From NCBI GenBank assembly GCA_036795535.1, contig DAIREN010000004.1:1-50489 (forward strand): DNA of 50,489 nucleotides, in the 5' to 3' direction. Source of the stretch: Spirochaetota bacterium (lineage in GTDB: Bacteria; Spirochaetota; JAGLSM01; JAKPMW01). The notes under the pieces are model-generated. The model saw nothing but the letters and a program-made list of their open reading frames with translations. It made no database searches and was not told the origin of the DNA. The position numbers were made by a program, and so were the translations under genes. This document shows positions 9,723-50,311 of the stretch, piece by piece (position 1 is the first letter of the stretch; every line of letters starts with the position of its first letter).

Positions 9723-11176
9723 ATGTAGAGATCCCGTTCACCATTCCGGATCCTGGCGAGAAGCTCGCGGGTATGGCGCTGCAGTTCCGGGGGGGTGATC
9801 CCGTCCAGTTCCCGTTCCACAAGCGCTGCCCCGACCGAACGTGTTTCCGGTGATGCGTAATCGAGAAGGTATTCCATGAAGGTGAGCACCGCATTCGGCC
9901 GGCACATATGCTGGATATGTCCCTTCTTGGCGATACACATGAACTGGCGGCCGGTGCGCCCCAAACGATAGTCGGCCGTGCAAAACGACGTGATCCGCCC
10001 GCGTGAGGCCAGCCAGCGGATTCCCTCATCCAGCGTCCGTGTATCGGACAGGACAAACTGTTGCCGAGCATGGTCTTCACGGGCCTGACTGTAGGCACCC
10101 ACCCCGATATTCGAACCGAAATCAAGTTGGGTGACACCCTGATCCAGGAGCCGTTCACGGACTGCGGCCGGCTCGCGACAGGTCAGGATCATCCCGGTAT
10201 AGGGAACCATCAGGCGAATGATCGCCACGATCCGGATAAAGGTTTCATCATCGATCTTCCACGCCGAGTTGTCGATCCATGGGGTATTGACGGCCGGTTC
10301 TATCCGAGGGAAAGAAATCGTGTGCGGCCCGACACCCCCGAACCTGTTTTCGAGATCGATCGTATGAGCCAAAAGCCCGAGGATCTCGAAGCGCCAGTCT
10401 GAAACCCCGAAGAGTGCCCCCATCCCGACATCATCGGCCCCGGCCTCGAGGGACCGGTGCAGGGCATAGAGCCGCCAGCGATAATTGGCCTTCAGACCGG
10501 ACGGGTGGATGTTGGCATAGGTCTTCCGGTCATAGGTCTCCTGGAACACCTGATACGTCCCAATCCCGACATCACGCAGAACCCGCAGTGAATCGACCGA
10601 GAGCGGCGCGGCATTCACATTGACACGGCGGATCTCTCCGTTCCCGGACTTGACACTGTAGGCAACCTTGATGGTTTGCGCAATATATTCGTAGTCGGAT
10701 TGCGGATGCTCCCCGTAGACCATGATCAGGCGTTTATGACCGGCCTCAACCAGCGCCTTGACCTCGGCCCGAATCTCCTCGTCGGTCAGTCGTTTTCTGG
10801 TGATCGCGCCGTTTTCGGTCCGATACCCGCAGTACTGGCAGTTGTTGACACAGAGATTGCTCACATACAACGGCGCAAAAGTGACGATCCGGTTTCCATA
10901 CACCGAGTTCTTGATCTCTCCGGCTGCCTTGAAAATCTCGTCCCAGATCCCGTGCTCCTTGGGAATGGCAACGAGTTGGGCCGCCTCATCAAGATCGAGA
11001 CGGGCCAGCGAACGGGCCTTGGCGATGATCTCGCGCACACGGCCTTCATCAAACCGGGTCTCTCCGATCAGCCTCGTAAAAAGATCGTCATCGACAAAAT
11101 CCCGGCCATTGACGAGATAGCGCTCGATCTCGTCCTCACGAACCACCTGATCCATCCACTCACGAACACCTGTCAT
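9719..11176 (-). CDS. hydG: radical SAM [FeFe]-hydrogenase maturase HydG-like (ThiH/HydG family)
   Basis: CVNNCQYC (CX3CX2C) radical SAM motif. ThiH/HydG-type core. A HydG-specific C-terminal extension ...SFCTADYRLGRTGRQFMCIAKKGHIQHMCRPNA. Adjacent to a TM1266-type regulator gene. ATG 11176 with GGGGGAG upstream. Confidence 0.8.
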   Translation of the reverse strand: MTGVREWMDQVVREDEIERYLVNGRDFVDDDLFTRLIGETRFDEGRVREIIAKARSLARLDLDEAAQLVAIPKEHGIWDEIFKAAGEIKNSVYGNRIVTFAPLYVSNLCVNNCQYCGYRTENGAITRKRLTDEEIRAEVKALVEAGHKRLIMVYGEHPQSDYEYIAQTIKVAYSVKSGNGEIRRVNVNAAPLSVDSLRVLRDVGIGTYQVFQETYDRKTYANIHPSGLKANYRWRLYALHRSLEAGADDVGMGALFGVSDWRFEILGLLAHTIDLENRFGGVGPHTISFPRIEPAVNTPWIDNSAWKIDDETFIRIVAIIRLMVPYTGMILTCREPAAVRERLLDQGVTQLDFGSNIGVGAYSQAREDHARQQFVLSDTRTLDEGIRWLASRGRITSFCTADYRLGRTGRQFMCIAKKGHIQHMCRPNAVLTFMEYLLDYASPETRSVGAALVERELDGITPPELQRHTRELLARIRNGERDLYI

Positions 11177-11244
11177 GTCATTCTCCCCCGTCCAAGGCTC
11201 CGGAATTTGTGAGACACGGCCGCAAGCTCTCTACCCAAAAACCC

Positions 11245-11487
11245 TCAAGCCTCTGGCTCGAACGTGACCCGTGAACTCGTCCCCGGCAACTTTCCGATCC
11301 GGCCTGACAGCACGTTGACGGCATCCAGATCTGCATCCAGAACCAGCACGATCACCGCAAGATCGCGGTCAACAAAGGGCAGACCAAGACGTCCGGCAAT
11401 GGAGCCACGAAATCGGGCAATCTCGGCATTGACCCGGGCACCATTTTGCCCGGGATCACGGATTATAATGGAAAGTGTTGCCAGCAT
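11245..11487 (-). CDS. TM1266-family putative iron-only hydrogenase system regulator (small ACT/NikR-C-like protein)
   Basis: 80-aa product MLATLSIIIRDPGQNGARVNAEIARFRGSIAGRLGLPFVDRDLAVIVLVLDADLDAVNVLSGRIGKLPG... matches the pattern I recall for the family usually found beside hydG/hydE. The internal ATG 11487 was chosen over the 11613 extension. Confidence 0.6.
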   Translation of the reverse strand: MLATLSIIIRDPGQNGARVNAEIARFRGSIAGRLGLPFVDRDLAVIVLVLDADLDAVNVLSGRIGKLPGTSSRVTFEPEA

Positions 11488-11613
11488 CACACGCACCCCG
11501 GGAAGAGAAAGGCATCCTCTCTCTTCAGGACTGTTTTTTGGCGCACGACGGCATGGAGTGCACACCGCAATGCATGTCTTAAGTATACACAATTTTCCGG
11601 CCTGAATCCTCAC

Positions 11614-11632
11614 CCCCGCGTTGCATCATTGA
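11614..11632. repeat. copy 1 of an exact 19-nt intergenic repeat ccccgcgttgcatcattga
   Basis: Identical 19-mer at 50434-50452 in the same orientation, with non-matching flanking bases. It lies between the hydG-regulator start (11487, -) and the GT2 gene (+), and overlaps the -35 of the promoter candidate at 11629. Confidence 0.9.
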
Positions 11633-11657
11633 CAGATTAATTGGAAAAGTCTAGACT
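11629..11657 (+). promoter_or_regulatory. sigma70-like promoter candidate for the glycosylation operon
   Basis: TTGACA (11629-11634), 17-nt spacer, TAGACT (11652-11657), about 42 nt upstream of GTG 11699. Confidence 0.45.
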
Positions 11658-11698
11658 GGAGAAACTGACAGAAATACTTGCACAAACCGAGGACACCC

Positions 11699-12664
11699 GT
11701 GATTTCTCTCCACACATCCATCATCATCCCCTGCTACAACGAAGAGCAGGTCATTGCCGAAACGTACCGGCGCGTCAAAGCCGTCATGAAAGAATTCAAA
11801 AAGTACGAGATCATCTTCATTGATGACGGAAGCCGTGACCAGACACGGACCATCCTCCGCAATCTCGCCCGGGCCGACAAAACGGTCCGCGTCCTGATGT
11901 TCTCCCGGAATTTCGGGCACCAGCCCGCTGTCACGGCCGGCATCCGCCACGCCTCCGGGGATGTCGCCATCATCATTGATGCCGACCTGCAGGACCCGCC
12001 GGAACTCTTCCCCGAGATGATCCGCATCCACCAGGAGCAGGGGGCCAATGTCGTCTTCGGCCATCGCACGAAGCGCAAGGGGGAGTCCTTTTTCAAGAAA
12101 ATCACGGCCAAACTTTTCTATCGCTCCCTCAACAGACTCTCGGAGGTCCCCCTTCCTCTGGATACGGGCGACTTCCGCCTGATCGATCGCAAGGTGATGG
12201 ACGCATTTTGCCAATTCGGAGAGAAAAACAAGTACATCCGCGGGATCATCAGCTGGCTCGGATTTGCACAGGCCCCGATCCACTATGTCCGCGAGGAACG
12301 CTTCGCCGGAGAGACCAAATACCCCTTCCGCAAGATGATCAAGTTTGCCACAACAGGTCTGCTCTACTTCACGAAAAAGCCGCTCAAACTGGCCATGCAC
12401 CTCGGCCTGTTCTGTGTCCTGGTCGGCTTGGGAATGGCCGCCTGGGTCATCTGGCTCCACCTCTCCGGAGACGCAAGTGTGGCCAAGGGTTGGCCATCCC
12501 AGCTCATCACCATCATCTTTTTCGGAGGCGTGCAGCTTTTAACAATTGGCGTCCTCGGCGGATACATCGGAAGTATCTTTGACGAGGTGAAAAACAGACC
12601 AGAGTACATCATCGGAGATGCCCTCAACTTCTCCGAAACCAAAACGAAAACAAAGAACAGGTAA
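11699..12664 (+). CDS. GT2 polyprenyl-phosphate glycosyltransferase (GtrB / Ppm1 / ArnC-like)
   Basis: IIIPCYNEE, FIDDGSRD, DADLQDPPE (DXD), then two C-terminal TM helices. GTG 11699 has GAGGA 5 nt upstream. The track start 11678 is TTG. Confidence 0.85.
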   Translation: MISLHTSIIIPCYNEEQVIAETYRRVKAVMKEFKKYEIIFIDDGSRDQTRTILRNLARADKTVRVLMFSRNFGHQPAVTAGIRHASGDVAIIIDADLQDPPELFPEMIRIHQEQGANVVFGHRTKRKGESFFKKITAKLFYRSLNRLSEVPLPLDTGDFRLIDRKVMDAFCQFGEKNKYIRGIISWLGFAQAPIHYVREERFAGETKYPFRKMIKFATTGLLYFTKKPLKLAMHLGLFCVLVGLGMAAWVIWLHLSGDASVAKGWPSQLITIIFFGGVQLLTIGVLGGYIGSIFDEVKNRPEYIIGDALNFSETKTKTKNR

Positions 12665-12671
12665 CGTCATC

Positions 12672-14192
12672 ATGCCATTCATGTTTACGCTCGCTGCAAA
12701 GCTACGGGCCATGGACAAGACCAACCGGTTTTCCGCTGCCCTGGTTGCCGTCTTCGTCCTGGCATCGGCCACGTTCATGATCAATTATCACCGGCCCTCG
12801 GGGATGTTTTGGGACGAGAATTATTATCTGACCGCGGTCCAGAAATACACGGACGGATATGTGTTTTTTGAGTCCCACCCGCCCCTGGGAAAACTCTTCA
12901 TGGCGCTCGGAGAAAATATCTTCAGCCGGAACGACCACCTGGACCGAAGCGCGTTTACCCTCACGGAAAAAATCGACTCGGTCCCCAAAGGCTATTCCTT
13001 TCTCGGAGTGCGGTTCTTCCCGGTCCTCTTCGCTGTCTTCGGAGCCTTGGTATTCTTCCTGATCCTTCACCGCCTCATCAAAAAACCCTTTTACGCCTTT
13101 GTCTTTTCAGGGTTTTACGTTTTTGAAAACGCGTTCATTCTCCATTCCCGGGGAGCCATGCTGGACAGCACCCAGCTCTTTTTCATCTTCTCTGCGATTG
13201 CCCTCTTCATTCGCTACACCGACGGGAAGGCCCCGGTCAAACTCCGCCACTATTTCGCGATGGCGTCCGTGGTCGGCTTGGCCATCATGGTCAAGGTCAA
13301 TGCCGCTTTTCTTCTGCTCCTCTTTCCGGTCCTGTTTCTCTATGAACACCGGGCTGCCATCAAGGAACGCTGGTTCCGGCAACGCAAGGCCTTTTGGCTG
13401 GATCTCCTCAAAAAATCGGCCGTTTCCGCGGGCGCAATCGCGCTGGTCACCTTTGTCGTTTTCATGATCCACTTCTCGCTTGGCGATCGCATTCCGGGCG
13501 GGCAAACCCAGAAGATCTCGCCTGAATACCGGTCAATCATCGCCCGCGGCGAAACCGGAAACCTGTTCAATTTCCCGATCATGTTCAAAGACTACCTGAA
13601 CTATATGTCGAGTTATCACGAGAATGTCCCCAAGTTCCGCAAGTACGATGAGGGTGACAACGGCAGCCGTCCGATCACGTGGCCATTCGGTGAAAAAAGC
13701 ATCCGCTACCGCTGGAACAAATCCGGTGGACAGGTCCAGTATCTCTACCTGCAGGGCAATCCTGTCATCTGGATCTCCGGGCTGATCGGTCTCGCCCTCG
13801 CCTTCGCCCTCATCTCGGGTCGTTTTGTCTTCAAACACAGGAGCGATGACCCCGAAAAGAACAGGCTCTTCTGGTACATCGCCTTCTTCTTCGGGCTCTA
13901 CGCGATCTACATGGCGATGATCATGCGAATTGACCGGGTGATGTATCTCTATCACTACTTCATTCCCCTGTTTTTCTCGCTCTTCCTTGCGGCACTCGTC
14001 TTTGCGTACATCTTCCGCGAGAAAATCGAGCAGAACAACCGTGTCCTGATCACGGCCTGCGGAATCTTCTTCATCGAAATCGTTGCGGTCTTCGTCTTCT
14101 TCATGCCGCTCACGTACTACTTCCCGCTTACAACCCGGGAATTCCTCCAGCGGACCTGGCTGGATATCTGGGAGTTGAAATATGTCCAGTAA
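12672..14192 (+). CDS. PMT-family (GT39-like, GT-C fold) lipid-carrier-dependent glycosyltransferase
   Basis: Polytopic membrane protein. Loop-1 FWDENYYL acidic motif. HPPLGKL. Periplasmic loop ...GSRPITWPFGEKSIRYRW...YLYLQGNPVIW, typical of bacterial dolichyl/polyprenyl-phosphate-mannose protein mannosyltransferases. ATG 12672 is 7 nt after the GT2 stop. Confidence 0.8.
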   Translation: MPFMFTLAAKLRAMDKTNRFSAALVAVFVLASATFMINYHRPSGMFWDENYYLTAVQKYTDGYVFFESHPPLGKLFMALGENIFSRNDHLDRSAFTLTEKIDSVPKGYSFLGVRFFPVLFAVFGALVFFLILHRLIKKPFYAFVFSGFYVFENAFILHSRGAMLDSTQLFFIFSAIALFIRYTDGKAPVKLRHYFAMASVVGLAIMVKVNAAFLLLLFPVLFLYEHRAAIKERWFRQRKAFWLDLLKKSAVSAGAIALVTFVVFMIHFSLGDRIPGGQTQKISPEYRSIIARGETGNLFNFPIMFKDYLNYMSSYHENVPKFRKYDEGDNGSRPITWPFGEKSIRYRWNKSGGQVQYLYLQGNPVIWISGLIGLALAFALISGRFVFKHRSDDPEKNRLFWYIAFFFGLYAIYMAMIMRIDRVMYLYHYFIPLFFSLFLAALVFAYIFREKIEQNNRVLITACGIFFIEIVAVFVFFMPLTYYFPLTTREFLQRTWLDIWELKYVQ

Positions 14193-32791: not shown

Positions 32792-34777
32792 TCAGCGGGC
32801 ATTCATCAACTGGTTCCAGAGAGCAGTGCGATAATTCTTGTGGTTGTTCCAATATTCGTTGATCAAGCCGCGATATTTGTTGATGGCCTGTTTTTCGGAG
32901 TTGTCCCGCACGAAGTAGTTTTTGACTTCATCGTCATTATGGACTCTCTTCCATTTATCATCGATATCACGGAGCAAGTCGTTCCACTCACTTCCGAGCA
33001 TCATCTCCCTGAGCTTGCGCGTCTGTTCTGGTGTTTCCCCCTCGACCCCGCGTATTTCCCTCAATGCCTCCTGGTAAAACTCCCGGACGGCCTCGTTGGT
33101 CCCGTCCCGCATCTTGCGGCGTTGACCGTTGGCGTAGTGGGGAACACAATCATTCATGCACTTGTTTTTGGAGTGACCGGAATGCTTGACACTGATTTTG
33201 ACATCATGAGCCATCTGTCCGGCTTCCTGGGCCGCGCGTATAGCAACCTGCTTCCCTTTATTGCCCGCCGCTTTGGCGGCATTCCCGACGGCACGATAGG
33301 CCGCCTTGAACTCGTCTCCGGCCATATCGACGATCTTGTCCAGAATCGAATTGACCAACCTGTCCGGATTGAACGAACCGGACAGATTGAAATTGATCCG
33401 CTTGCCGAACACCGTCAGATCACAGGCCACACCACCTCCAAACTCCGAACGCATGGCCTTCAGATCGATCGCGATCCGGCGCAGATTGAGGGTAGATGTG
33501 ACCCGGTTGACCAGGACCTTGAGAGCCTTGTGGTTACGCACCCGTTTCAGCAAGATCTCGCGAATGGAATTGTTCATCTCGACGGAAAACTGGAGACCAT
33601 CGTCAAAATTGGCCGTAAAATCGATCTTCCCGTTGAGCGCACTCCCGATTCTCGCTTCTCCCTTGAAGGCGAACCCCTGTGCAATTTCTAGCTGTCCGAC
33701 TTTGCCACCGTTGGGCGAGAAGAGAATCTCGACATCGTTAAGGGCAAGATCCTCGGGGATTACATTCGGCATGCGTTTCCCGAAGACCCTTGTGATGATC
33801 TTGAGGAGATCCGAGTAGTTGAGTTTGTTGACCTTGGCCTGGAAGGCCAACTGTCCGTCCGTCGGTGAAAAATCGACAACAGCCCCGAAGACAAGATCCA
33901 TTATCTTGGCAGTTTCGATTCCGAATCCGATCTTGGTCGGTGTCGGAGATCCGGGAATCCAGCCGATCTCGAAGGCCGCGTTTTCAAACACCACACCTTC
34001 ACGATTTTTGAAGACTCTCGACAGTCCAAGCGGATTCACCCAGCGATCCTGCATGGTTCCGGCAAGTGTCAACTCCTGGGTCACGCAATCATACGAGAAT
34101 TCGGTCAGCGTCGAGAGCGGCTTGTCCCATTGGGTCGGCTGCACGCGCACTGCAGCCTGAACCGAGATGACAGGCGTCAGATCCAGATTGATCAATTTTT
34201 TCTTTTTTTTGGCCGTCTCGCTGATCTGCGGTTTGTCCTCGCTCTTGGCCAACTCGATACCGACATCGAGCGCAAGCGAGAGTCTTTGGACAAAAAGCCG
34301 TGTCCCGAGTTTCGGAATCAGGAGGAGATTGAGATCCCGACGGGAGAACATGAGATCGCCACGGAGGGAGATCCCGCCCGGTGCGACCCGGGCCGTGACA
34401 TCAATGAATGGTGCCTTGATATCCAGCAATCGCACAATCGGTTTGAGATGCTTTTTTGTATCGATCCGGGCAACAATCGCGAGCCCGTCGGCATTCAACT
34501 TGAGGGTGGTGTCCTGGAGCCCGATCCGTTTCAGGACGGAATACCCGGGGACTTTGGAGAGGTCGTCGGTCTGGACCTTTGACTCGAGATTGAGGGGGGT
34601 GATGGTGCCCTGGAATGAAAAACTTCCGACCTGCGGAAGCGTGACAGTCCAGTTTTGCCCCTGACGGGTCGCCTGAATCGAGCCGAAATGCTTGACGGAA
34701 ATCTGTTCGGCAGAAAGCGGAAGCAGAGAGCTGGCAAGGAAGGCTACTGCAAGCAGGATGTTTCGTCGTAATATCAT
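32792..34777 (-). CDS. hypothetical secreted protein, 661 aa, no recognisable domain
   Basis: ATG 34777 preceded by GGAGGA. Signal peptide MILRRNILLAVAFLASSLLPLSAEQ. Long region with beta-rich character, an internal KKKKK, and a charged helical C-terminal region of about 150 aa. It has its own terminator. Confidence 0.7.
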   Translation of the reverse strand: MILRRNILLAVAFLASSLLPLSAEQISVKHFGSIQATRQGQNWTVTLPQVGSFSFQGTITPLNLESKVQTDDLSKVPGYSVLKRIGLQDTTLKLNADGLAIVARIDTKKHLKPIVRLLDIKAPFIDVTARVAPGGISLRGDLMFSRRDLNLLLIPKLGTRLFVQRLSLALDVGIELAKSEDKPQISETAKKKKKLINLDLTPVISVQAAVRVQPTQWDKPLSTLTEFSYDCVTQELTLAGTMQDRWVNPLGLSRVFKNREGVVFENAAFEIGWIPGSPTPTKIGFGIETAKIMDLVFGAVVDFSPTDGQLAFQAKVNKLNYSDLLKIITRVFGKRMPNVIPEDLALNDVEILFSPNGGKVGQLEIAQGFAFKGEARIGSALNGKIDFTANFDDGLQFSVEMNNSIREILLKRVRNHKALKVLVNRVTSTLNLRRIAIDLKAMRSEFGGGVACDLTVFGKRINFNLSGSFNPDRLVNSILDKIVDMAGDEFKAAYRAVGNAAKAAGNKGKQVAIRAAQEAGQMAHDVKISVKHSGHSKNKCMNDCVPHYANGQRRKMRDGTNEAVREFYQEALREIRGVEGETPEQTRKLREMMLGSEWNDLLRDIDDKWKRVHNDDEVKNYFVRDNSEKQAINKYRGLINEYWNNHKNYRTALWNQLMNAR

Positions 34778-34976: not shown

Positions 34977-37900
34977 CTAGTCGACCGTGAAGTACTTGGC
35001 CTGCGGGTGATGGACGATAAAGGCACTGGTGGTCTGCTCGGGAACCATTTGATGATTGTCACTCTCGGTGACACCAATCTCCTCTGCATGAACCAGTTTG
35101 AGCAGGGTGCTGTTTTCCGCAAGATCGGGACAGGCCGGATACCCGAAGGAATACCGGCTTCCCCTGTATTTCTGCACGATAAAATCATCGATACCCGCAC
35201 CGTCTTGCCCGTCGATCCCCAAATCGCGCCTGATCTGACGATGCCAGAATTCGGCCAGGGCCTCGGCACTCTCGACAGCCAGACCGTGGAACAGAAGGTA
35301 TTCACGATAGCGTCCTGCATCATACAACTCATGGGCGTAGCGATCCGCACCTGGCCCGATGGTGACAACCTGAAGCGGCAGGATATCGAACCGCCCGCCC
35401 GTTTTCGGCAGGAAGTAGTCCGGAATCGAACGACCCGGTGCCCTCTTTTGCCTGGGAAAGTTGAGGCGGGCGATTTCCTTGAATGATCCGTCACAGACAA
35501 TCAAACTCTCACCCTCACTCTGACAGGGGAAATAGCCCCACGCGACTTTTGGGGTAAAAAGTTCATGATCGCGCACAAGGGCTTTGAGACGCGAGAGTTC
35601 CGGTTTGGCCTCGCGTTCAAGGAGTGCTTCAAATTCTTCTTTGGAAAGTTGCCCTCGACGAAAACCCCAGCGGCCCCGAAAGAGAACGCTTTCAGTTAAC
35701 AGCGAAAAGACATCATCAAGCGAGATATCTTCGGTCGAACGGCTCCCGTAAAAAGGCGCTCGCGGAACGGCATCAAGGACCTGAACGGATTCAACATCCC
35801 CTGCTGCTTCTTGGGCAGAAATCCTCTGCGCGGCATGAAGTGCAGTGCGGCGACGGATATCGGCATGCTTGATCCGGTCAGCGGCAACCGCTTCAACGAG
35901 TCCACCGTCCCGGACCAGGGTCATCCCCCTCAGCCCGTCAAACGCATCCGCGCTGTAGACGACTGTTCCGTCATAGACCGCCTGGCAGTCCTCATCGGCC
36001 CATTGGCGGGTCAAGGCTGCGCCTCCCAGGAAGACTGGCAGGCGAAGACCGGCCGACTGGAGCGCTTCCAGATATTCCTTCATGATGACGGTCGACTTGA
36101 CCAAGAGACCGGACAACCCGATCGCATCCGCACCAACCTCACGGACCTTCTCGATGATTGTCTGGATCTCGCACTTGATGCCCAGGTTGTAGACCTTGAA
36201 CCCGTTATTGCTGAGGATAATGTCGACAAGGTTTTTCCCGATGTCATGGACATCCCCTCGGACTGTTGCCAGAACGATACTGCAGGGCTTGGAGGCATCC
36301 TTCTTCTCGATCCAGGGCTGCAGGATCTCGACAGCAGCACGCATCGTCTCGGCGGACTGGAGCACAAAGGGAAGCTGCATTTTGCCGGATCCGAAGAGAT
36401 CTCCCACGATTTTCATGGCCGGGATGAGAATCTCGTTGATGATGGACAGGGCATCATGCGAGGAACGGGCTTCCTCAAGCATCACGTCGAGCGCGGCCCG
36501 GTTCCCGCGGATAATGGCCTGTTCGAGCCGCTTCTCGACCGGGAGGGAAACCTGACTCCCGGACACAGCTTCCTGTCCCGCCGATCGATCCTCGAAGCGT
36601 TTGATGAAATCAAAAAGAGCATTTTCAGTTTTATTGTAGATCAGGGCCAGGGCCGCTTCCCGATCCCCGTCATCGATGGCCGCCATGGGAACGATCGAAG
36701 AGGCATGCACGATCGCCATATCGAGTCCGGCATCCACCGCTTCGGCCAGAAAGACGGAATTGAGGATTTTCCTCGGCTGGGGTGAGAGTCCGAACGAGAT
36801 ATTGGAGAGACCCAAAACCGTCCAGACCCCGGGCAGGGCCGCTTTGACACGGCGGATTCCATCGAGGGTTTCAACCCCGGCGTTTCTCGAATCAGGGTCG
36901 CCGCTTCCAAGCGTGAAGGTCAGGACGTCAAAGACAAGGTCCTGTGGCTTCATTCCGACGCGATCCACTGCGAGAGCATGAATCCTCCGGGCAACCTCGA
37001 GTTTCTTTCCGGCCGTCTTGGCCATTCCATCAATTTCATCGATCGTCAAAGCAACCAGCGCGGCGCCAAATCGTTTTGCCAGCCGACAAACCCGCTCGGC
37101 ATACTCCTCGCCGGATTCAAGATTGACGGAGTTGACAAGGGGGCGGCCGCCGTACAGTTTGAGTGAGGCTTCGAGCACCTCGAGGCTGGTCGAATCAATC
37201 ACGAGCGGAAACCGGGTGCGGGTGACGGCCTTCGAGACGGCCAGTGTCATGTCGCGGACTTCATTGCGCCCCGTATAGGCAACACAGAGATCGAGGGCAT
37301 GCGCTCCGCCCGTTTCCTGGTCAGCGATCACCTCGAGGATTCCGTCCCAGTTTTCGGAGGTGAGGAGTTCCTTGAAGCGCCGGCTCCCGTTGGTATTGGC
37401 CCGTTCACCGATCATCAGGGGGCGTGGTACCTGGAGCATGTTTTGCGCCGTATACAGGCTGGCCAGGGTCCAGGCGCGTTCCCGTTGACGGGCGGCCGGC
37501 TTGACCCCGGGAGTTGCCCTGGAGAGGGCGGCAATATAGTCGGGACTCGTTCCGCAGCAACCACCCACAATCTGGACGCCGTCTTCGGCAACATAGCGTG
37601 CCACACGCTGGGCAAAATCCTCCGGAGAGAGGGAATAGACCATCTTCCCGTTGATGTTCTGCGGCATTCCGGCGTTGGGCATCACCATCGTGAATCCGGG
37701 GAAGGTCTGACTGATCTCCCTGATATACGGGGCCATCAGATCCGGACCGGTCGCACAGTTGATCCCGAGGATGTCCACGCCCATGGCGGATGCAACAGAG
37801 ATAACGGCCGAGATATCGCTCCCCACGAGCATCGTTCCTGTGGTCTCGATGGTCACAGAAAGCAGGATCAGGATATCCCGTCCCGAGGCAACGATCACAT

Positions 37901-38417
37901 CCTGCGCCGCTTCAATCACTGTCTTGAAGTGCAGGGGGTCCTGGCAGGTCTCGATCATGAAAATGTCGACGCCACCATCCGCGAGGGCCTGGATCTGAGG
38001 GAGATAGGCGGCATAGACGGCATCATGATCAATCTGTCCGAGGCTGGCAAGGCGTGTTCCCGGCCCGATCGATCCGGCGACATAGCGCGGCTTGCCATCA
38101 CCAAACCCGTCCGCTACGCTTCGCGCCAGCCGGGCCGCCGCCAGATTGATCTCCCTGGTCTGATCGGAGAGACTGTATTCGGCAAGGACGTAGCTGCTGG
38201 CACCAAAGGTATTCGTCTCCACGATGTCGGAACCAGCCGCATAATAAAGCCGGTGCACCTCGCTGATCAAATGTGGTGCGGAGATATTGAGATACTCGTT
38301 GCAGCCATGATGGCCACCCCAGTCTTCATCCCGGATTTCCATTTTCTGGATCTCTGTGCCCATGGCACCATCCAGAAGAAGCAGCTCTCCGGCTGCCAGC
38401 CGCTCGCGAAGTGTCAT
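34977..38417 (-). CDS. metH: cobalamin-dependent methionine synthase
   Basis: Hcy-binding LLLDGAMGT...GGCCGTSP; pterin-binding domain; B12 motif GDVHDIGKN...SGLL; AdoMet activation domain ...RYSFGYPACPDL. ATG 38417 was chosen; the track start 38447 is TTG. Confidence 0.95.
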   Translation of the reverse strand: MTLRERLAAGELLLLDGAMGTEIQKMEIRDEDWGGHHGCNEYLNISAPHLISEVHRLYYAAGSDIVETNTFGASSYVLAEYSLSDQTREINLAAARLARSVADGFGDGKPRYVAGSIGPGTRLASLGQIDHDAVYAAYLPQIQALADGGVDIFMIETCQDPLHFKTVIEAAQDVIVASGRDILILLSVTIETTGTMLVGSDISAVISVASAMGVDILGINCATGPDLMAPYIREISQTFPGFTMVMPNAGMPQNINGKMVYSLSPEDFAQRVARYVAEDGVQIVGGCCGTSPDYIAALSRATPGVKPAARQRERAWTLASLYTAQNMLQVPRPLMIGERANTNGSRRFKELLTSENWDGILEVIADQETGGAHALDLCVAYTGRNEVRDMTLAVSKAVTRTRFPLVIDSTSLEVLEASLKLYGGRPLVNSVNLESGEEYAERVCRLAKRFGAALVALTIDEIDGMAKTAGKKLEVARRIHALAVDRVGMKPQDLVFDVLTFTLGSGDPDSRNAGVETLDGIRRVKAALPGVWTVLGLSNISFGLSPQPRKILNSVFLAEAVDAGLDMAIVHASSIVPMAAIDDGDREAALALIYNKTENALFDFIKRFEDRSAGQEAVSGSQVSLPVEKRLEQAIIRGNRAALDVMLEEARSSHDALSIINEILIPAMKIVGDLFGSGKMQLPFVLQSAETMRAAVEILQPWIEKKDASKPCSIVLATVRGDVHDIGKNLVDIILSNNGFKVYNLGIKCEIQTIIEKVREVGADAIGLSGLLVKSTVIMKEYLEALQSAGLRLPVFLGGAALTRQWADEDCQAVYDGTVVYSADAFDGLRGMTLVRDGGLVEAVAADRIKHADIRRRTALHAAQRISAQEAAGDVESVQVLDAVPRAPFYGSRSTEDISLDDVFSLLTESVLFRGRWGFRRGQLSKEEFEALLEREAKPELSRLKALVRDHELFTPKVAWGYFPCQSEGESLIVCDGSFKEIARLNFPRQKRAPGRSIPDYFLPKTGGRFDILPLQVVTIGPGADRYAHELYDAGRYREYLLFHGLAVESAEALAEFWHRQIRRDLGIDGQDGAGIDDFIVQKYRGSRYSFGYPACPDLAENSTLLKLVHAEEIGVTESDNHQMVPEQTTSAFIVHHPQAKYFTVD

Positions 38418-38487
38418 CCTGTCCCGCCTGTTGTGGTTTGCATACAAAATATACTCCGTTCAAGGTCCGTCTCAAACGATATCCCTC

Positions 38488-38517
38488 TTGACAATCGAAG
38501 TCCAAATCACATATTCT
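38488..38517 (+). promoter_or_regulatory. sigma70-like promoter candidate for the GHKL-like gene
   Basis: TTGACA (38488-38493), 18-nt spacer, TATTCT (38512-38517), about 60 nt upstream of ATG 38577. Confidence 0.35.
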
Positions 38518-38576
38518 GTTTGTGGACCTGCGGGATTCTGTTCGCGGGCACCAAGACCCGCAGAAATGGATGTTGT

Positions 38577-39338
38577 ATGCCACAGACTGAAGCAGGGATA
38601 CGCCAGGAAGTCGAGCGTTCCCTCGATAAAAACGATATCATCACGTTTCGGACCTACTACCTGAGCGACTACGGAGAAATGGTGTTGCGTGTCATCGCCT
38701 CCTCAATCCTCGAACGATTCGGCCGATCCGACTTGATGGATATTGTCTACAGCGCCGCCAAGGAGCTGATCATCAACGCGACAAAGGCCAATCTCAAACG
38801 CGTCGTCTTTACCGAACTCGGTCTGGATCTCCTCAGCCCGTCGGAGTACGAAAAGGGGATGCACATCTTCAAGGAACGTCTCGTCGAAGACAAGGTCAAA
38901 GAGTACGAAAAGGTTTTCAAGGAGATGGACTATCCCGTTGTGTCGACATTCTACTACTGGCCCAATGTCCTCAACATCAAGGTCAAAAACAGTTTCATGC
39001 TCCTGCCGGAGGAAGAAAAAAAGATCCGTTCCAAATTCGAACGGGCGCATTCGTTCGCGAATCTCCTGGATTTTTACATGGAGTACGGAGATGACACCGA
39101 AGGCGCCGGGCTGGGACTGGCCATGGTCGGAATCCTTCTCGACGAGAGCGGGATCGACAAGCACGCCTTCACGCTCTACTCGAACCAGTATAACGAAACG
39201 GCCGCCCGCCTCGAGATTCCCCTGACAAAAGACTATGTCCCGAGACGGGTTGTGTTTGAACGTGAACGCGCCAAGTCGGGACTCTCGGCCGACGAGTTTC
39301 GCAAGATCTTTCAGCCACACAACCATTTTCCAAACTGA
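38577..39338 (+). CDS. stand-alone GHKL/HATPase_c-like protein (possible anti-sigma-type Ser kinase or pseudokinase)
   Basis: This is the 3' third of track ORF 37299..39338. N-box-like AAKELIINATKAN and G2-box-like DDTEGAGLGLAMVGILL. The expected DxGxG (G1) position reads VKNSFM. The rest of the track ORF is antisense to metH. Confidence 0.5.
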   Translation: MPQTEAGIRQEVERSLDKNDIITFRTYYLSDYGEMVLRVIASSILERFGRSDLMDIVYSAAKELIINATKANLKRVVFTELGLDLLSPSEYEKGMHIFKERLVEDKVKEYEKVFKEMDYPVVSTFYYWPNVLNIKVKNSFMLLPEEEKKIRSKFERAHSFANLLDFYMEYGDDTEGAGLGLAMVGILLDESGIDKHAFTLYSNQYNETAARLEIPLTKDYVPRRVVFERERAKSGLSADEFRKIFQPHNHFPN

Positions 39339-45707: not shown

Positions 45708-46712
45708 TCATTTTGTGAGAGCCATGATTTCCGGGGCATGCCCGGCACTGCCGAGGACATTCTCGTTCTTCGCCTTGTACATCGCCTTGAGAGCGTCACG
45801 GGCCGGACCGAGGTATTTTCTCGGGTCGAATTCGCCGGGCTTGTTGGCAAGGACTTCGCGGATCTTGGCCGTCATCACGAGGCGGCCATCGGAATCGATG
45901 TTGATCTTGCAGACGGCCGACTTCGATGCATCGCGAAGCTGGTTCTCGGGAATACCGATCGAATCGGCCAGTTTCCCGCCAAATTTGTTGATGGCTTCAA
46001 CAGCATCTTGGGGAACAGACGACGATCCGTGCAGAACAATGGCGAATCCCGGAATACGTTTTTCGATTTCTTTAAGGATATCCAGGCGGATTTCGGGTTT
46101 CTGGCCCGGCTTGAACTTGAACGCGCCATGGGATGTCCCGATCGAGATGGCGAGTGAATCCACTCCGGTCCGGGCGACAAAATCCTGAACCTCTTCAGGC
46201 TGGGTGTATGTGTGATGCTCGGCCGAAACTTCATCCTCAACACCGGCAAGCACTCCCAGCTCTCCCTCGACAGTGACATCATGGGCATGGGCAAACTCCA
46301 CCACCTTTTTTGTGAGGGCAACGTTGTCCTCATACGGAAGGTGCGAGCCATCGATCATGACGGATGAAAAACCGCTCTCAATGCAGGAGACACAGGTTTC
46401 ATAGGAATCACCGTGATCGAGGTGCAACGCGATCGGAATCTCTCCGACACCCATCTCCTTTGCCTTGCGGCGCATCATCTCGATGGCACCCTGTCCGAGA
46501 TAGGTCAGAAGGGTCTGGTCGGCATAATCCCGGGCACCCTTGGAGACCTGGAGAATCACGGGAGATTGTGACTCGAGGCAAGCGAGGACAATCGCCTGAA
46601 GCTGTTCCATGTTGTTGAAGTTGTACGCCGGAACAGCAAAGCCGCCCGACACTGCCTTGGCAAACATGTTCTTTGTGTTGACGAAGCCCAGTGATTTGTA
46701 GCTGATGGCCAT
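45708..46712 (-). CDS. fba: class II fructose-bisphosphate aldolase
   Basis: FAVPAYNFNNMEQLQAI, PIALHLDHG, SVMIDGS, LHGSSSVP. ATG 46712 with AAGGAG 6 nt upstream. Confidence 0.9.
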   Translation of the reverse strand: MAISYKSLGFVNTKNMFAKAVSGGFAVPAYNFNNMEQLQAIVLACLESQSPVILQVSKGARDYADQTLLTYLGQGAIEMMRRKAKEMGVGEIPIALHLDHGDSYETCVSCIESGFSSVMIDGSHLPYEDNVALTKKVVEFAHAHDVTVEGELGVLAGVEDEVSAEHHTYTQPEEVQDFVARTGVDSLAISIGTSHGAFKFKPGQKPEIRLDILKEIEKRIPGFAIVLHGSSSVPQDAVEAINKFGGKLADSIGIPENQLRDASKSAVCKINIDSDGRLVMTAKIREVLANKPGEFDPRKYLGPARDALKAMYKAKNENVLGSAGHAPEIMALTK

Positions 46713-46751: not shown

Positions 46752-47204
46752 TTACATTGACTCGAGTGCGGAGATGATCTCCTCCGCGTTTTTGGCTGCA
46801 AGGAGAGCGGTTTTGACCCGCTCGTTTTTGGCAAGCATGGCAATCCTGGCAAGAATCTGCAGGTATTCACGATGCTGGTGGCTTCCCGCCGCGACCATCA
46901 GGGCAAAATGGACCGGCTTGTCGTCCATCGAGCCGTAGTCACTGATTCCCTCGCGGGAAACCCCTATCGCAATGACAATATCCCGGACGGCATCACTGTA
47001 GGTATGTGGCACGGCGATACCCAGCCCGATGCCGGTGCTCATGATGTTTTCACGTTCGAGGATTCCGTTCCGGAACTTGTCGTGATCCGCAATCAAATCA
47101 GACCCGGTAATGCACTCCATCAGACGATGGAGCGCCTGCTGCTTGTGTGTCTCGGCATCAAAAAAAACGATTCGTTCACGGGAAACATATTTTTGGAGCA
47201 TCAT
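46752..47204 (-). CDS. ptsN: PTS EIIA(Ntr)-type protein PtsN
   Basis: MSTGIGLGIAVPH active-site His motif; PVHFALMVAAG...HREYLQILARIA. The start is ATG 47204 or 47201, immediately after GGGAGGA. It lies 39 nt upstream of fba. Confidence 0.8.
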   Translation of the reverse strand: MMLQKYVSRERIVFFDAETHKQQALHRLMECITGSDLIADHDKFRNGILERENIMSTGIGLGIAVPHTYSDAVRDIVIAIGVSREGISDYGSMDDKPVHFALMVAAGSHQHREYLQILARIAMLAKNERVKTALLAAKNAEEIISALESM

Positions 47205-47395
47205 TCCTCCCGGGAGTGGTTCTGAGAAAGAAACAATACACAAAAAGACAGGAAAAAAAAAGAAACGGCTTTCGGGTCCGTGGTTCCCCAACCACCGATG
47301 TACCGTCTTTCCAGAGCTGAAAATTCTCTGGCAATGCCCGAAGAGCCGGGATAGACTGGTGAGCATCAAAGAAATTCGGGACACAGAGGGTAGGT

Positions 47396-48958
47396 ATGGA
47401 GCCGGACCGGGCGCTTCAGGGACAGGCATTGACTCCCGAAACATTCCTGCAGATGCTTGATTGCAAAGCTGCGGATCTGGTTCTGCTCTGCAGGTACGTC
47501 CTCAAGCTGCAGAATATCGAGGCAGTCTTGCAGCGACCACTGCTCGGGCGCCTCTTCATTGAAGCATCCAAGATCGAAGAAGTCCTGGACGCCTACGGCG
47601 CCAAGAATAACAAGCACTGGTGCCGTTTCAGAAGCCTGGTCGCGGCACTCAAAACGTTCTCAAATGCGACATACATCTTCCTCCATATCAGGAATGCCGC
47701 ACCACGCTATCGCCTTCTGCCCATTGAGGGGGATTTCTTCGGGGATACCGGACGATGCACCACCCGGCTCGGGACAATGCTTGTCTCCATTGTCCGGACC
47801 TTTGTCTCCGAGGCCCGCCGAACGGGCATGGCCGTGCGCGGACGGTTTCGCCAGGCAAGTCCTTTGTACGACATGCCGTTGACGGGGATTCTCCCGGCTG
47901 ACAGACAGTTCCAACATATTGCCTCCCCGGCCAAAGTGGTCGTCTATCTTGCAACCGCTTTCCTGTCCGAATCGGGCCAGTCACTCCTGCAGGATCTGGC
48001 CGGAAAGCTGGATCGTTGCCGGTATCCAGAGTGCGTGCCGGATATGTTCAGCGAACGCACGCTGCGGGTTGCGGAGCGGGAGTTCCACAATCTGCAGGCC
48101 ATGTACGATACCCATATCTCGGATACGGATGCCGAGCAACAAGACCGGAATCTCCCGGTCATCCGGGGTCATGTCTCCATCATTTACCACCTGCTGGAGA
48201 TCGCGACCCTGCTCTCGCACCACTATGAGCGCCATATTGCCGGGCACGGAAGCGGGAGGTCCCGGACCCGCCCGATCGTCAACGTCGATGAACTCCTGGA
48301 GATCCTCATCGAATACTCGCTGGCCTATGCCGGCAAGTTCATGAAATCGGCGCAACATCTCTGCAGGACGATGATCAGACGCTATGCCGAACCGGCACGG
48401 ATCGAGGTCCCAGTCCCGGTGTACCGCGGGTTCCATGTCCGCCCCTCGACGCTGGTGGCCAAGATTGTCCTCCATTACGGGAGCGAGGTCTATCTCGAAA
48501 CCAGTGACGGTTCCCGCTACGACGCGTCTTCCCCTCTGGAACTGTTTCGCGTCAATGAAAAGATCAACGCCGAAAAGCGCCGGATGCTGGCCCAGCACAT
48601 GGCTGCCATGCCCGAGATCAAGCAGGCCGCCGAAGACGCCTCGGTCAAGCAGGAATTGATGCGCAGGGTCTTTTTCAGACTGCTGCAAAAAAAGGACATC
48701 GTGATCTACGAGGGACATCTTCCCTTCGACGACATCAAACCCGAGGATGGAGAGATCCTCCCCGAGTTTCTCAAGCGGGCGCTGGCCTATTTCCTGGCTC
48801 ACGGGCTGATTGATATCCGGATCGACATGAAAGTGGCCTTTTGCGGAGACAGGCGGGTACTGGACGACATCCACGTCCTGGCTGAACACGGGTACGGCGA
48901 GGATCGCTATGGCAATGATGTCATGCTGCCCCCGCCGCTGGCCTATTTGAAGCGCTGA
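47396..48958 (+). CDS. 520-aa protein with an unassigned helical N-terminal region of about 330 aa and a C-terminal HPr-like phosphocarrier domain carrying a large insertion
   Basis: GFHVRPST (His347, codon 48434-36) matches the HPr His15 motif G[LIF]H[AVT]RP. GSRYDASSPLELF aligns with the Ser46 region. IDMKVAFCGDRRVLDDIHVLAEHGYGE matches the last strand/helix. About 85 aa are inserted between them. Confidence 0.65.
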   Translation: MEPDRALQGQALTPETFLQMLDCKAADLVLLCRYVLKLQNIEAVLQRPLLGRLFIEASKIEEVLDAYGAKNNKHWCRFRSLVAALKTFSNATYIFLHIRNAAPRYRLLPIEGDFFGDTGRCTTRLGTMLVSIVRTFVSEARRTGMAVRGRFRQASPLYDMPLTGILPADRQFQHIASPAKVVVYLATAFLSESGQSLLQDLAGKLDRCRYPECVPDMFSERTLRVAEREFHNLQAMYDTHISDTDAEQQDRNLPVIRGHVSIIYHLLEIATLLSHHYERHIAGHGSGRSRTRPIVNVDELLEILIEYSLAYAGKFMKSAQHLCRTMIRRYAEPARIEVPVPVYRGFHVRPSTLVAKIVLHYGSEVYLETSDGSRYDASSPLELFRVNEKINAEKRRMLAQHMAAMPEIKQAAEDASVKQELMRRVFFRLLQKKDIVIYEGHLPFDDIKPEDGEILPEFLKRALAYFLAHGLIDIRIDMKVAFCGDRRVLDDIHVLAEHGYGEDRYGNDVMLPPPLAYLKR

Positions 48959-48969
48959 GGATCTGGATA

Positions 48970-49758
48970 TCACTCAAACCGCATGTGCTTGACCGACTGC
49001 CCGGTCCGGGCAAGATTGCGCAACGAATCAATCCCGATTTCGAGATGGGTTTTGACAAACTTCGCAGTCACGCTCGTGTCGCTTTTGCTCGTCTTGATCC
49101 CCTCGGGCACCATCGGGTTGTCCGAAACAAGCAGCAAGGCTCCGCGCGGAATCTCGTTGGCAAAGCCGACCGTAAAGAGGGTTGCCGTTTCCATATCGAT
49201 CCCGATCGCGCGGATTTTTTGCAGATACTCGCGAAAATCCTTGTCATGTTCCCAGACGCGACGGTTGGTCGTATAGACCGTCCCGGTCCAGTACTCGAGC
49301 TTGCGCTGGCGGATCTCGATCGAAACCGCCTTGTGCAGACGGAATGACGGCAGGGCCGGGATCTCGGGCGGCAGATAGTCATTGCTGGTCCCTTCGCCCC
49401 GGATGGCCGCGATAGGAAGAATAAAGTCTCCGAGTTTTGTTTTTTTGAGACCGCCACATTTTCCAAGAAACAGCACAGCCTGGGGCTTGACCGCCGACAA
49501 GAGATCCATCACCGTCGCGGCAAGCGGGCTGCCCATGCCAAAATTGATGATCGTCACCTCGCCGGATGTTGCCATCTGCATCGGCTTGTTGCGGCCAATA
49601 ATCTCGACCCCGTGCATCTCGGCAAACATTTCGACATAATTGATGAAGTTCGTCAGCAGGATGTACTTGGCAAAGCTCGCAAGAGGGGCTCCGGTATAGC
49701 GGGGAAGCCAGTCCTCGACGATTTCTTTTTTTGTCGGCATGCCTTTTCCGCTTGTCAT
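48970..49758 (-). CDS. amn: AMP nucleosidase (short, catalytic-domain-only form; PNP/UDP phosphorylase fold)
   Basis: ATG 49758 with GGAGGG 5 nt upstream. KYILLTNFINYVEMF, INFGMGSPLAA, GKCGGL, IDMETATLF. Confidence 0.75.
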   Translation of the reverse strand: MTSGKGMPTKKEIVEDWLPRYTGAPLASFAKYILLTNFINYVEMFAEMHGVEIIGRNKPMQMATSGEVTIINFGMGSPLAATVMDLLSAVKPQAVLFLGKCGGLKKTKLGDFILPIAAIRGEGTSNDYLPPEIPALPSFRLHKAVSIEIRQRKLEYWTGTVYTTNRRVWEHDKDFREYLQKIRAIGIDMETATLFTVGFANEIPRGALLLVSDNPMVPEGIKTSKSDTSVTAKFVKTHLEIGIDSLRNLARTGQSVKHMRFE

Positions 49759-49828
49759 GTGTACCCTCCGGATGCTGTTGGGCCAAGTATAGCACCCGGA
49801 CAGGATGGGCGTCAGCACGCACAGGAGA

Positions 49829-50311
49829 TTACAAAACCCGGCGGGCACCCCGATAGCGTGTCCGCCAGTACTCGATCCTCATGTCCGTGTATTCCACTGT
49901 CTTTCCCGCCCGGGGCGAGTGGATAAAGCGGTTGTTTCCCGCGTAGATTCCAACATGGGAGACACCATTGCCATAGGTATGGAAAAAAACCAGATCGCCG
50001 GGTTGCGGGTTCTGTACTGTCCGGAGCTGTCCGAATTGTCCGGCTGCGGTGTGGGGAAGCTGGACGCCGACCTGACGAAAGACATAAAGCACAAAGCCGG
50101 AACAGTCAAACCCCCGCGGGTCACTTCCGCCATACCGGTAGGGGGTCCCGAGATAACGACGTGCGATTGTCAGGACTTCACCCCGCTTGCCTGCAGGCTG
50201 GACCGTACCCGTGGGGGTATTGGTCACTTGTGCCTGGCTGGTCGTTGTCATGCAACCGGCAAGACACACGAGCAGGAGCAAATGTCCCAGACCGTGTGAA
50301 AGTGTCTGCAT
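49829..50311 (-). CDS. NlpC/P60-family cell-wall peptidase lipoprotein
   Basis: Lipobox VCLAGC. YRYGGSDPRGFDCSGFV (catalytic Cys), HVGIY (His), FIHS. ATG 50311 preceded by GGAGGA. Confidence 0.85.
   Translation of the reverse strand: MQTLSHGLGHLLLLVCLAGCMTTTSQAQVTNTPTGTVQPAGKRGEVLTIARRYLGTPYRYGGSDPRGFDCSGFVLYVFRQVGVQLPHTAAGQFGQLRTVQNPQPGDLVFFHTYGNGVSHVGIYAGNNRFIHSPRAGKTVEYTDMRIEYWRTRYRGARRVL

Follow-up and report, generated by a model that had tools for sequence, protein, structure and literature searches.

A widespread bacterial protein family in which a predicted HPr fold, split by an insert, is fused to a helical domain without a known match

The PTS-Ntr relay of the bacterial phosphotransferase system (PTS) runs from enzyme I, EI(Ntr), to NPr and then to EIIA(Ntr), and in free HPr it is the surface of helix 2 that contacts EI and EIIA. 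HPr, NPr, and Crh (PF00381, TIGR01003; genes ptsH and ptsO) are proteins of about 88 amino acids. HPr is also found embedded in larger polypeptides, the multidomain PTS phosphoryl-transfer proteins FPr/FruB, DhaM, and EI-HPr-EIIA, and a 2008 survey of PTS phosphoryl-transfer proteins listed HPr fusions only with EI or EIIA domains (PMC2405797). E. coli HPr can act outside the PTS: it is reported to transfer phosphate to a histidine that lies within a His-rich pocket of the non-PTS protein glycogen phosphorylase (PMC13324651; structures 9s8b and 9s8k). In many bacteria without PTS sugar transporters, the regulatory targets of the PTS are largely obscure. Here we analyze a 520-amino-acid protein encoded by such a bacterium, a member of the Spirochaetota (assembly GCA_036795535.1). 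Its gene lies on contig DAIREN010000004.1 (C4), within a stretch of 50,489 nucleotides that we call the window. An earlier note, made from the sequence alone, had described the protein as a possible NPr-type phosphocarrier fused to another domain.

The phosphocarrier module of this protein is known; what is new is the architecture, in which the module is split, tailed, and fused to a domain without a known match. The protein shares with HPr, NPr, and Crh the predicted order of fold elements and a G-x-H-x-R-P loop containing the equivalents of His15 and Arg17. It differs from them in its length of 520 amino acids, in an insert of about 80 residues in helix 2, in a conserved 21-residue tail, and in its fusion to a helical domain of 330 residues; it also scores below the curated hidden Markov model (HMM) cut-offs, and its Ser46 equivalent is not conserved. 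NPr (PtsO) is encoded in a rpoN/hpf-ptsN-(rapZ)-ptsO neighborhood, whereas the window gene sits beside a different EIIA_2 gene and in neither a rpoN/hpf/ptsN nor a ptsHI operon. The known multidomain proteins fuse HPr to EI, EIIA-Fru, or EIIA-Man, but the partner domain here belongs to no PTS domain type and no described family, and HPr was the only PTS domain found when the window protein and 30 relatives were scanned, the relatives with Pfam at E values up to 1, the setting used for all statements about these 30 proteins. With E. coli glycogen phosphorylase, the partners are separate proteins and HPr acts on the His-rich pocket of a known enzyme, whereas the window protein carries an invariant His-rich patch as a putative acceptor fused in cis, within a fold that has no match. 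The architecture, which the earlier note did not know to be characterized, is absent from Pfam, NCBIfam, and the PDB, and a search of the full-text literature found no paper on it. We conclude that this is a real, widely conserved, and unstudied family of bacterial proteins.

The open reading frame (ORF) is present exactly as first described. Its parts are listed here, with the evidence in brackets; "split" forms contain the insert, "contiguous" forms lack it, and A3 is a joint alignment of both that includes seven contiguous forms.

47396..48958, plus strand: whole gene, N-domain plus split HPr, 520 amino acids, stop codon at 48956-48958 (ORF list)
47396..48385, plus strand: N-domain, residues 1-330, all-helical in two bundles, helices 14-142 and 178-329 (AlphaFold secondary structure)
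48386..48547, plus strand: HPr domain, first half (residues 331-384), with strand 1, the active-site loop RGFH347VR349P, helix 1, strands 2 and 3, and the beginning of helix 2 (PF00381, hhalign, Foldseek, conservation)
48434..48436, plus strand: CAT codon of His347, which corresponds to the His15 that is phosphorylated in HPr (invariant in 101 split forms and in the contiguous sister forms)
48548..48790, plus strand: insert, residues ~385-465, inside HPr helix 2, with a long conserved basic helix, two more helices, and a short strand (gap in the sister forms in A3; AlphaFold secondary structure)
48791..48892, plus strand: second half of the HPr domain, residues ~466-499, comprising helix 2 from its LAxG end, strand 4 (KVAFCGD), and helix 3 (gapped Foldseek alignments; A3 profile)
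48893..48955, plus strand: C-terminal tail, residues 500-520, YGEDxxGNxxxLPxxLxYL (invariant in alignment A1; common to the contiguous sister forms)

Standard HPr models recognize only the first half of the domain. PF00381 scored 18.1 bits on the 520-residue protein, against a cut-off of 23, and aligned residues 337-384 with positions 4-49 of its 81; TIGR01003 scored 20.6 bits against a cut-off of 47.9. PF00381 matched 27 of the 30 relatives, with a best E value of 2.3e-4. A profile of the C-terminal 193 residues of 24 relatives (A2) found almost exclusively HPr proteins of solved structure, over the first half only and at E values of 0.05 or higher, and hhalign aligned the split-HPr profile with the canonical HPr of the same genome at a probability of 85% over 47 columns. 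By the earlier note's own reckoning, an HPr HMM that fails to cover both halves would count against the HPr reading, and PF00381 does span the first half only; the fold search and the profile built with the contiguous sisters outweigh this.

All structural statements made here concern predicted models. AlphaFold modeled the full-length protein with a predicted local distance difference test score (pLDDT) of 87.4 and a predicted template-modeling score of 0.80, and the C-terminal domain alone with a pLDDT of 91.6. The predicted elements run from a strand (333-339) through the active-site loop, a helix (348-361), two strands (365-368 and 374-376), and a helix beginning at 380 to the insert, and then to a strand (479-485) and a helix (486-497); in the model, this is the order of elements in HPr. 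The last strand and helix correspond to MKVAFCGDRRVLDDIHVLAEHGYGE, which had been picked out from the sequence as the terminal beta-alpha unit of HPr and is present as such. When the domain model was compared with the PDB using Foldseek, nearly all matches were to HPr, NPr, or Crh, with the HPr chain of 9s8b at the top. The first half superimposed with a root-mean-square deviation of 1.4-1.7 Å and a probability of up to 1.00. Alignments gapped over the insert covered nearly the whole of HPr, with template-modeling (TM) scores, normalized to HPr, of 0.81 (3le1_A and 3le3_A) and 0.75 (7x7h_B), so that the HPr fold is predicted to persist despite the insertion. The E values were weak (0.026 or higher), as expected from a match of only ~50-85 residues. 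This search yielded no match for the fold of the insert, HPr being all that was matched for the whole domain.

There is also a sister subfamily that lacks the insert. When residues 1-330 were compared by phmmer with 1.84 billion representative proteins, 307 clusters with the N-domain were found, nearly always together with HPr; they include, besides the form of ~500-550 amino acids, one of ~432-457 amino acids. The short forms are 23%-31% identical to the window N-domain over about 320 residues. PF00381 scored above its threshold in seven of the eight short forms scanned (26.8-41.8 bits, the eighth scoring 21.3 bits), and in some of them its match covers almost the whole profile (positions 2-78 of 81, for example). 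In A3, a single clean gap in the short forms (436-443 amino acids) faces residues ~385-465 of the window protein, after which they resume at the LAxG of helix 2 and continue through strand 4 and helix 3 into the tail GYGEDxxGNxxxLPxxLxYL. The extra segment had earlier been placed at about residues 386-470. We regard the insert as a derived trait of the ~520-residue clade. Searched against the PDB with the insert treated as an insertion state, the A3 profile matched HPr chains end to end (residues 2-88; 3le5 at E 7e-11 and 3le1 at E 1e-10), and it also found NPr (5t17) and E. coli HPr.

The C-terminal part is thus, by prediction and transitive homology, a complete HPr fold split inside helix 2. 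The assignment is based on the invariant active-site motif, on the AlphaFold and Foldseek results, and on the profile of the contiguous sister subfamily, and not on the HPr HMM. The ~440-residue sisters (for example, P0204, P0210, and P0232) resemble the window protein in having a homologous N-domain, the same HPr active site, and the same tail, and differ from it in lacking the insert, in exceeding the PF00381 threshold in seven of eight cases, and in conserving the Ser46 equivalent in 7/7; they are likewise uncharacterized.

Conservation was counted in 101 split-form sequences. Residue 347 of the window protein is a histidine encoded by CAT, in the context YRGFHVRPST / PVYRGFHVRPST, which bears out the proposed His15 motif GFH347VRPS; within the RGFHVRP motif, R344, G345, H347, R349, and P350 are present in 101/101. 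The tail residues Y500, E502, D503, G506, and N507 are equally invariant; the tail is specific to the superfamily and is missing from free HPr. Within the insert, the first helix is near-invariant (F384, R385, N387, E388, N391, K394, and R395 in 96-101 of the 101), and the remainder is variable except for Y438 and D473. The region proposed as equivalent to that of Ser46 is present, as YDASSPLELF with Ser378 and Ser379, but its serines are not conserved: position 378 is Ser in only 58/101 split forms and position 379 in only 49/101. Among the contiguous forms aligned in A3, Ser occupies the Ser46-equivalent position in 7/7.

The 330 residues that precede the HPr domain, originally seen as unassigned helical sequence, are all-helical in the AlphaFold model, with a low-confidence linker (~143-177) joining the two bundles. 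In both subfamilies (alignments A3 and A6), the invariant or near-invariant residues include E61, D65, N72, H231, Y237-D238-T239, R257, H265, H275, and E278-R279-H280, which make up a predicted polar, His-rich patch carried by helices 220-240 and 253-285. The N-domain of the window protein matched no Pfam or NCBIfam family. HPr was the only recurring Pfam domain in the 30 relatives, in which no nucleotide-binding or phosphoenolpyruvate (PEP)-utilizing motif or family was detected. Against the PDB, the N-domain gave no sequence match beyond chance and no significant Foldseek fold match. The phmmer matches in the PDB, such as a CitA sensor domain (E about 1), and the weak matches of the A3 profile to histone H2B (E 0.007-0.07) were all dismissed as resemblance that arises by chance among helices. 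Of the Foldseek rows for the full model, a CHAD domain ranked best (6qva; E 0.14, TM 0.20/0.30), and a CHAD-like N-domain (PF05235) was rejected when hhalign against a CHAD alignment from eight carrier genomes returned a probability of 0.2%. PRD regulators provide a looser analogy for the phosphorylation of histidines by HPr. The PRD family itself (PF00874) had no match in the 30 relatives, and no PRD structure appeared in the top 50 Foldseek rows; a functional analogy, in which HPr would phosphorylate a conserved His of a helical domain, is possible.

One protein, P0168 (759 amino acids; a single representative cluster), carries a TIR domain (PF13676, 86 bits) ahead of the N-domain, which hints that the module could be coupled to an NADase-type effector. 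A role in a defense system was rejected, as PADLOC gave no match for the window protein or for one short-form member and the TIR fusion is a single case.

The family is large and patchily distributed. More than 1,147 proteins matched at E ≤ 1e-3 in a collection clustered at 90% identity, and searches with two signature peptides matched at least 549 GTDB species genomes; the hosts are chiefly Spirochaetota, Planctomycetota (Phycisphaerae), and Competibacteraceae. Metagenome-assembled genomes of Oceanispirochaeta and Marispirochaeta are among the matches. Within the phylum of the window, 3 of 201 sampled genomes carry the family, and the superfamily, mostly in its short form, occurs in 31 of 151 sampled Planctomycetota. 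Full-length relatives of the window protein are 96%-41% identical to it at 100% coverage. Its own genome contains no paralogue; a weak PF00381 match on contig C101 was rejected as a second copy, the protein being a methyl-accepting chemotaxis protein. Two metagenome-assembled genomes each have two family copies on different contigs (JAFGXR01, L064 and L082; DDST01, L061 and L077). In one planctomycetote, a split-form gene lies in two adjacent frames (G353:C1:2813152-2814709, profile positions 5-207 and 210-519), either through a frameshift, because the copy is broken, or through an error in assembly.

At 80 GTDB loci, the commonest neighbor was a pyrophosphate-type phosphofructokinase (16 loci), and seryl-tRNA synthetase, thiolase, PhaC, glucose-6-phosphate dehydrogenase, glycogen synthase, and 6-phosphogluconolactonase also recurred; the window contributes a fructose-bisphosphate aldolase gene (fba). 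After dereplication to 24 lineages, however, no Pfam family appeared in more than 3 of the 89 proteins encoded within two genes on either side, and for this reason we do not rely on the central-carbon theme of the neighbors. A function in central carbon metabolism deduced from the neighborhood was rejected as lineage synteny, mostly that of Competibacteraceae. The 949 neighboring ORFs at the 80 loci included no EI, EIIA, or free HPr. One locus (L034, JAAUTD010000079.1) is labeled Synechococcaceae cyanobacterium SM1_2_3 and shares the phosphofructokinase, seryl-tRNA synthetase, thiolase, and PhaC genes with the Competibacteraceae loci; it is probably mis-binned, which makes the presence of the family in cyanobacteria doubtful.

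The host's PTS was surveyed in the assembly, which is 94% complete. It has a single EI (a 607-amino-acid frame on contig C145) and a single free HPr, a canonical protein of 91 amino acids with His15 and Ser46. The latter is encoded on contig C65 in an hpf-ptsN-HPr operon (10131-13373), together with a long HPF (252-amino-acid ORF) and a PtsN-like EIIA (156 amino acids). This gene order is the arrangement described for rpoN-linked ptsH genes of spirochaetes (PMC2405797), and the operon likely encodes the true NPr/PtsN pair of the organism. Seven ORFs contain EIIA_2 domains, six on contigs C164, C69, C65, C17, C46, and C50 and one in the window (46752-47201); two of the seven domains sit within frames of 711 and 919 amino acids. 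The window had been noted to lack EI, HprK, and EIIB/C genes; the sole EI is the one on C145, and HprK and EIIC had no match anywhere in the assembly, EIIB not having been searched for. With one EI, one HPr, seven EIIA_2 domains, and no EIIC match, the host's PTS looks purely regulatory and transporter-less. Regarding the proposal that the window protein is an NPr-type carrier fused to another domain, it does have an HPr-type module with an intact motif and a fusion to a large conserved domain, but the NPr-type label cannot be shown to apply, the NPr-like slot being held by the 91-residue HPr on C65.

The genes that flank the 520-residue protein are the following.

45708..46712, minus strand: class II fructose-bisphosphate aldolase (fba), downstream of the EIIA_2 gene (NF005481, 595.8 bits against a cut-off of 511, and PF01116)
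46752..47201, minus strand: stand-alone EIIA_2 protein, 149 amino acids, active-site His66 in GIAVPH (PF00359, 92.4 bits)
47202..47395, no strand assigned: divergent intergenic region of 194 bp between the EIIA_2 gene and the gene for the 520-residue protein (sequence inspected)
48970..49848, minus strand: AMP nucleosidase, downstream of and convergent with the gene for the 520-residue protein (NF005500, 415.6 bits)

The neighbor that had been called ptsN is divergent, has an intact GIAVPH motif, and matches PF00359. The name itself is unjustified, because the protein falls below both NCBIfam PtsN equivalog cut-offs (TIGR01419, 52.1 bits against 138.7; NF008145, 41.4 bits against 221) and is one of seven paralogues; among NCBIfam models, that of a fructose-type IIA domain scored best, with 83.5 bits where the cut-off is 103.5. 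We corrected its start, as the listed ORF of 230 amino acids was over-extended and the orthologues have 149. A divergent EIIA_2 gene is kept at four of four loci of the window's clade, namely the window and the loci of P0005 (57% identity), P0007 (56%), and P0010 (48%). The fba gene, correctly recognized in the window from the outset, also follows EIIA_2 beside P0005 and P0007, and a transaldolase gene lies near P0005, P0007, and P0010. No EIIA gene neighbors the family at any of the 80 loci from other lineages, so the pairing cannot define the function of the family. The earlier note had suggested a survey of co-occurrence with ptsP and ptsN. The EIIA pairing is limited to the window's clade. 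Of 50 genomes with the split form, all 50 have EI (PF05524), but EI is so common in the background that its co-occurrence is uninformative, being compatible with EI as a donor without constituting evidence for it.

What might such a protein do? We consider the chances somewhat better than even that it is a cytoplasmic signaling protein on a side branch of a transporter-less regulatory PTS, and it probably represents a new regulatory branch of the PTS. The host's single EI would phosphorylate His347 from PEP, and the phosphorylation state of His347 would switch the N-domain, which would serve as an output that binds a target. Phosphorylation might alter the packing of the HPr module on the N-domain, or the phosphoryl group might be passed to a histidine of the N-domain His-rich patch (H265, H275, or H280). 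For the second version, the reported action of HPr on glycogen phosphorylase is a direct precedent (PMC13324651). Within the window's clade, phosphate might also pass between the protein and the divergent EIIA_2 through its His66, this EIIA_2 being a plausible additional phospho-partner. Because the His, Arg, and Pro of the active-site loop are strictly conserved, we infer that His347 is phosphorylated; EI is proposed as the donor because it is the only known donor in the genome; and an intramolecular switch is suggested by the way in which HPr is permanently joined to a conserved domain that bears a His-rich patch, together with the conserved tail and the conserved basic helix that opens the insert.

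Several observations weigh against a PTS-linked switch. That His347 is phosphorylated is a putative step, and its donor and acceptor are likewise putative. The insert sits on the helix-2 surface and could alter EI docking. EI is near-universal in the background (200/201 genomes in the window's phylum and 149/151 Planctomycetota), and the only two of the 151 Planctomycetota without an EI match (G288 and G395) both carry the short form, although this may be an effect of incomplete assemblies. Finally, dereplication to 24 lineages left no conserved gene neighbor and hence no pointer to an output target.

Some of the same evidence bears on other readings. That the EIIA_2 gene with its intact GIAVPH is retained throughout the window's clade (4/4 loci, 48%-57% identity) suggests a dedicated NPr-like carrier that shuttles phosphate from EI to the neighboring EIIA_2, with the N-domain and insert tuning or localizing the transfer (in essence what the earlier note had proposed), and a host with seven EIIA_2 domains and one free HPr could make sense of extra carriers. 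We nevertheless regard this as unlikely, because the protein is equally conserved at the 80 loci without an EIIA neighbor, because the strictly conserved N-domain and tail are left unexplained, and because the canonical hpf-ptsN-HPr operon is elsewhere in the genome. A self-contained, PTS-independent phosphotransferase, whose catalytic N-domain would load His347 from a donor other than EI or would dephosphorylate it, is still harder to credit. The dense invariant residues E61, D65, H231, D238, R257, H265, H275, and E278-R279-H280 do resemble an active or phosphate-binding site, and the two planctomycetote genomes without an EI match would be accounted for, but an all-helical fold that matches no known kinase or phosphatase, the lack of any nucleotide-binding or PEP-utilizing family in the 30 relatives, and the presence of EI in all 50 split-form carriers argue against it.

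The sub-threshold HMM scores, the disruption by the insert of the helix-2 surface on which EI and EIIA dock, and the unconserved Ser46 equivalent would all fit an HPr-like module that only binds proteins, as Crh, which has no His15, does. Such a non-phosphorylated scaffold seems very improbable, since the retention of His347, Arg349, and Pro350 in 101/101 split forms, and of the His and Arg in the contiguous forms, is hard to explain without histidine chemistry. Returning to the signaling protein, a stronger version can be drawn by analogy with the action of HPr on glycogen phosphorylase or on PRD domains, and we put it forward as a doubtful conjecture: the superfamily would be a self-contained HPr-plus-acceptor switch, in which EI loads His347, the HPr module phosphorylates H265, H275, or H280 of its own N-domain, and the phosphorylated N-domain then controls a target, whether enzyme or regulator, in central-carbon or storage metabolism. 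If true, this would be a previously unrecognized class of PTS output protein, present in several phyla whose PTS is regulatory only.

The conserved fusion of HPr to a dedicated domain offers a direct handle on one output of the PTS, in hosts that include hundreds of species of Spirochaetota, Planctomycetota, and the glycogen-accumulating Competibacteraceae of wastewater. That the compact HPr fold tolerates an insert of ~80 residues in its partner-recognition helix also bears on how HPr selects its partners.

The ATG of the 520-residue ORF is preceded by a Shine-Dalgarno-like GAGGG, and a consensus scan of the divergent intergenic region (47202..47395) found no sigma-70-like site. The 5' end of the AMP nucleosidase ORF is probably over-extended, as the NF005500 match begins at residue 37 and the orthologues beside relatives have 259-271 amino acids. 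The remainder of the window is ordinary chromosomal DNA, with genes for a Lon protease, a major facilitator superfamily transporter, a SpoIIE-type phosphatase, and a radical-SAM enzyme. Two further ORFs, of 661 amino acids (32792-34777, minus strand) and 679 amino acids (37299-39338, plus strand), had no Pfam match; the second overlaps an opposite-strand ORF of 1,156 amino acids (34977-38447, minus strand).

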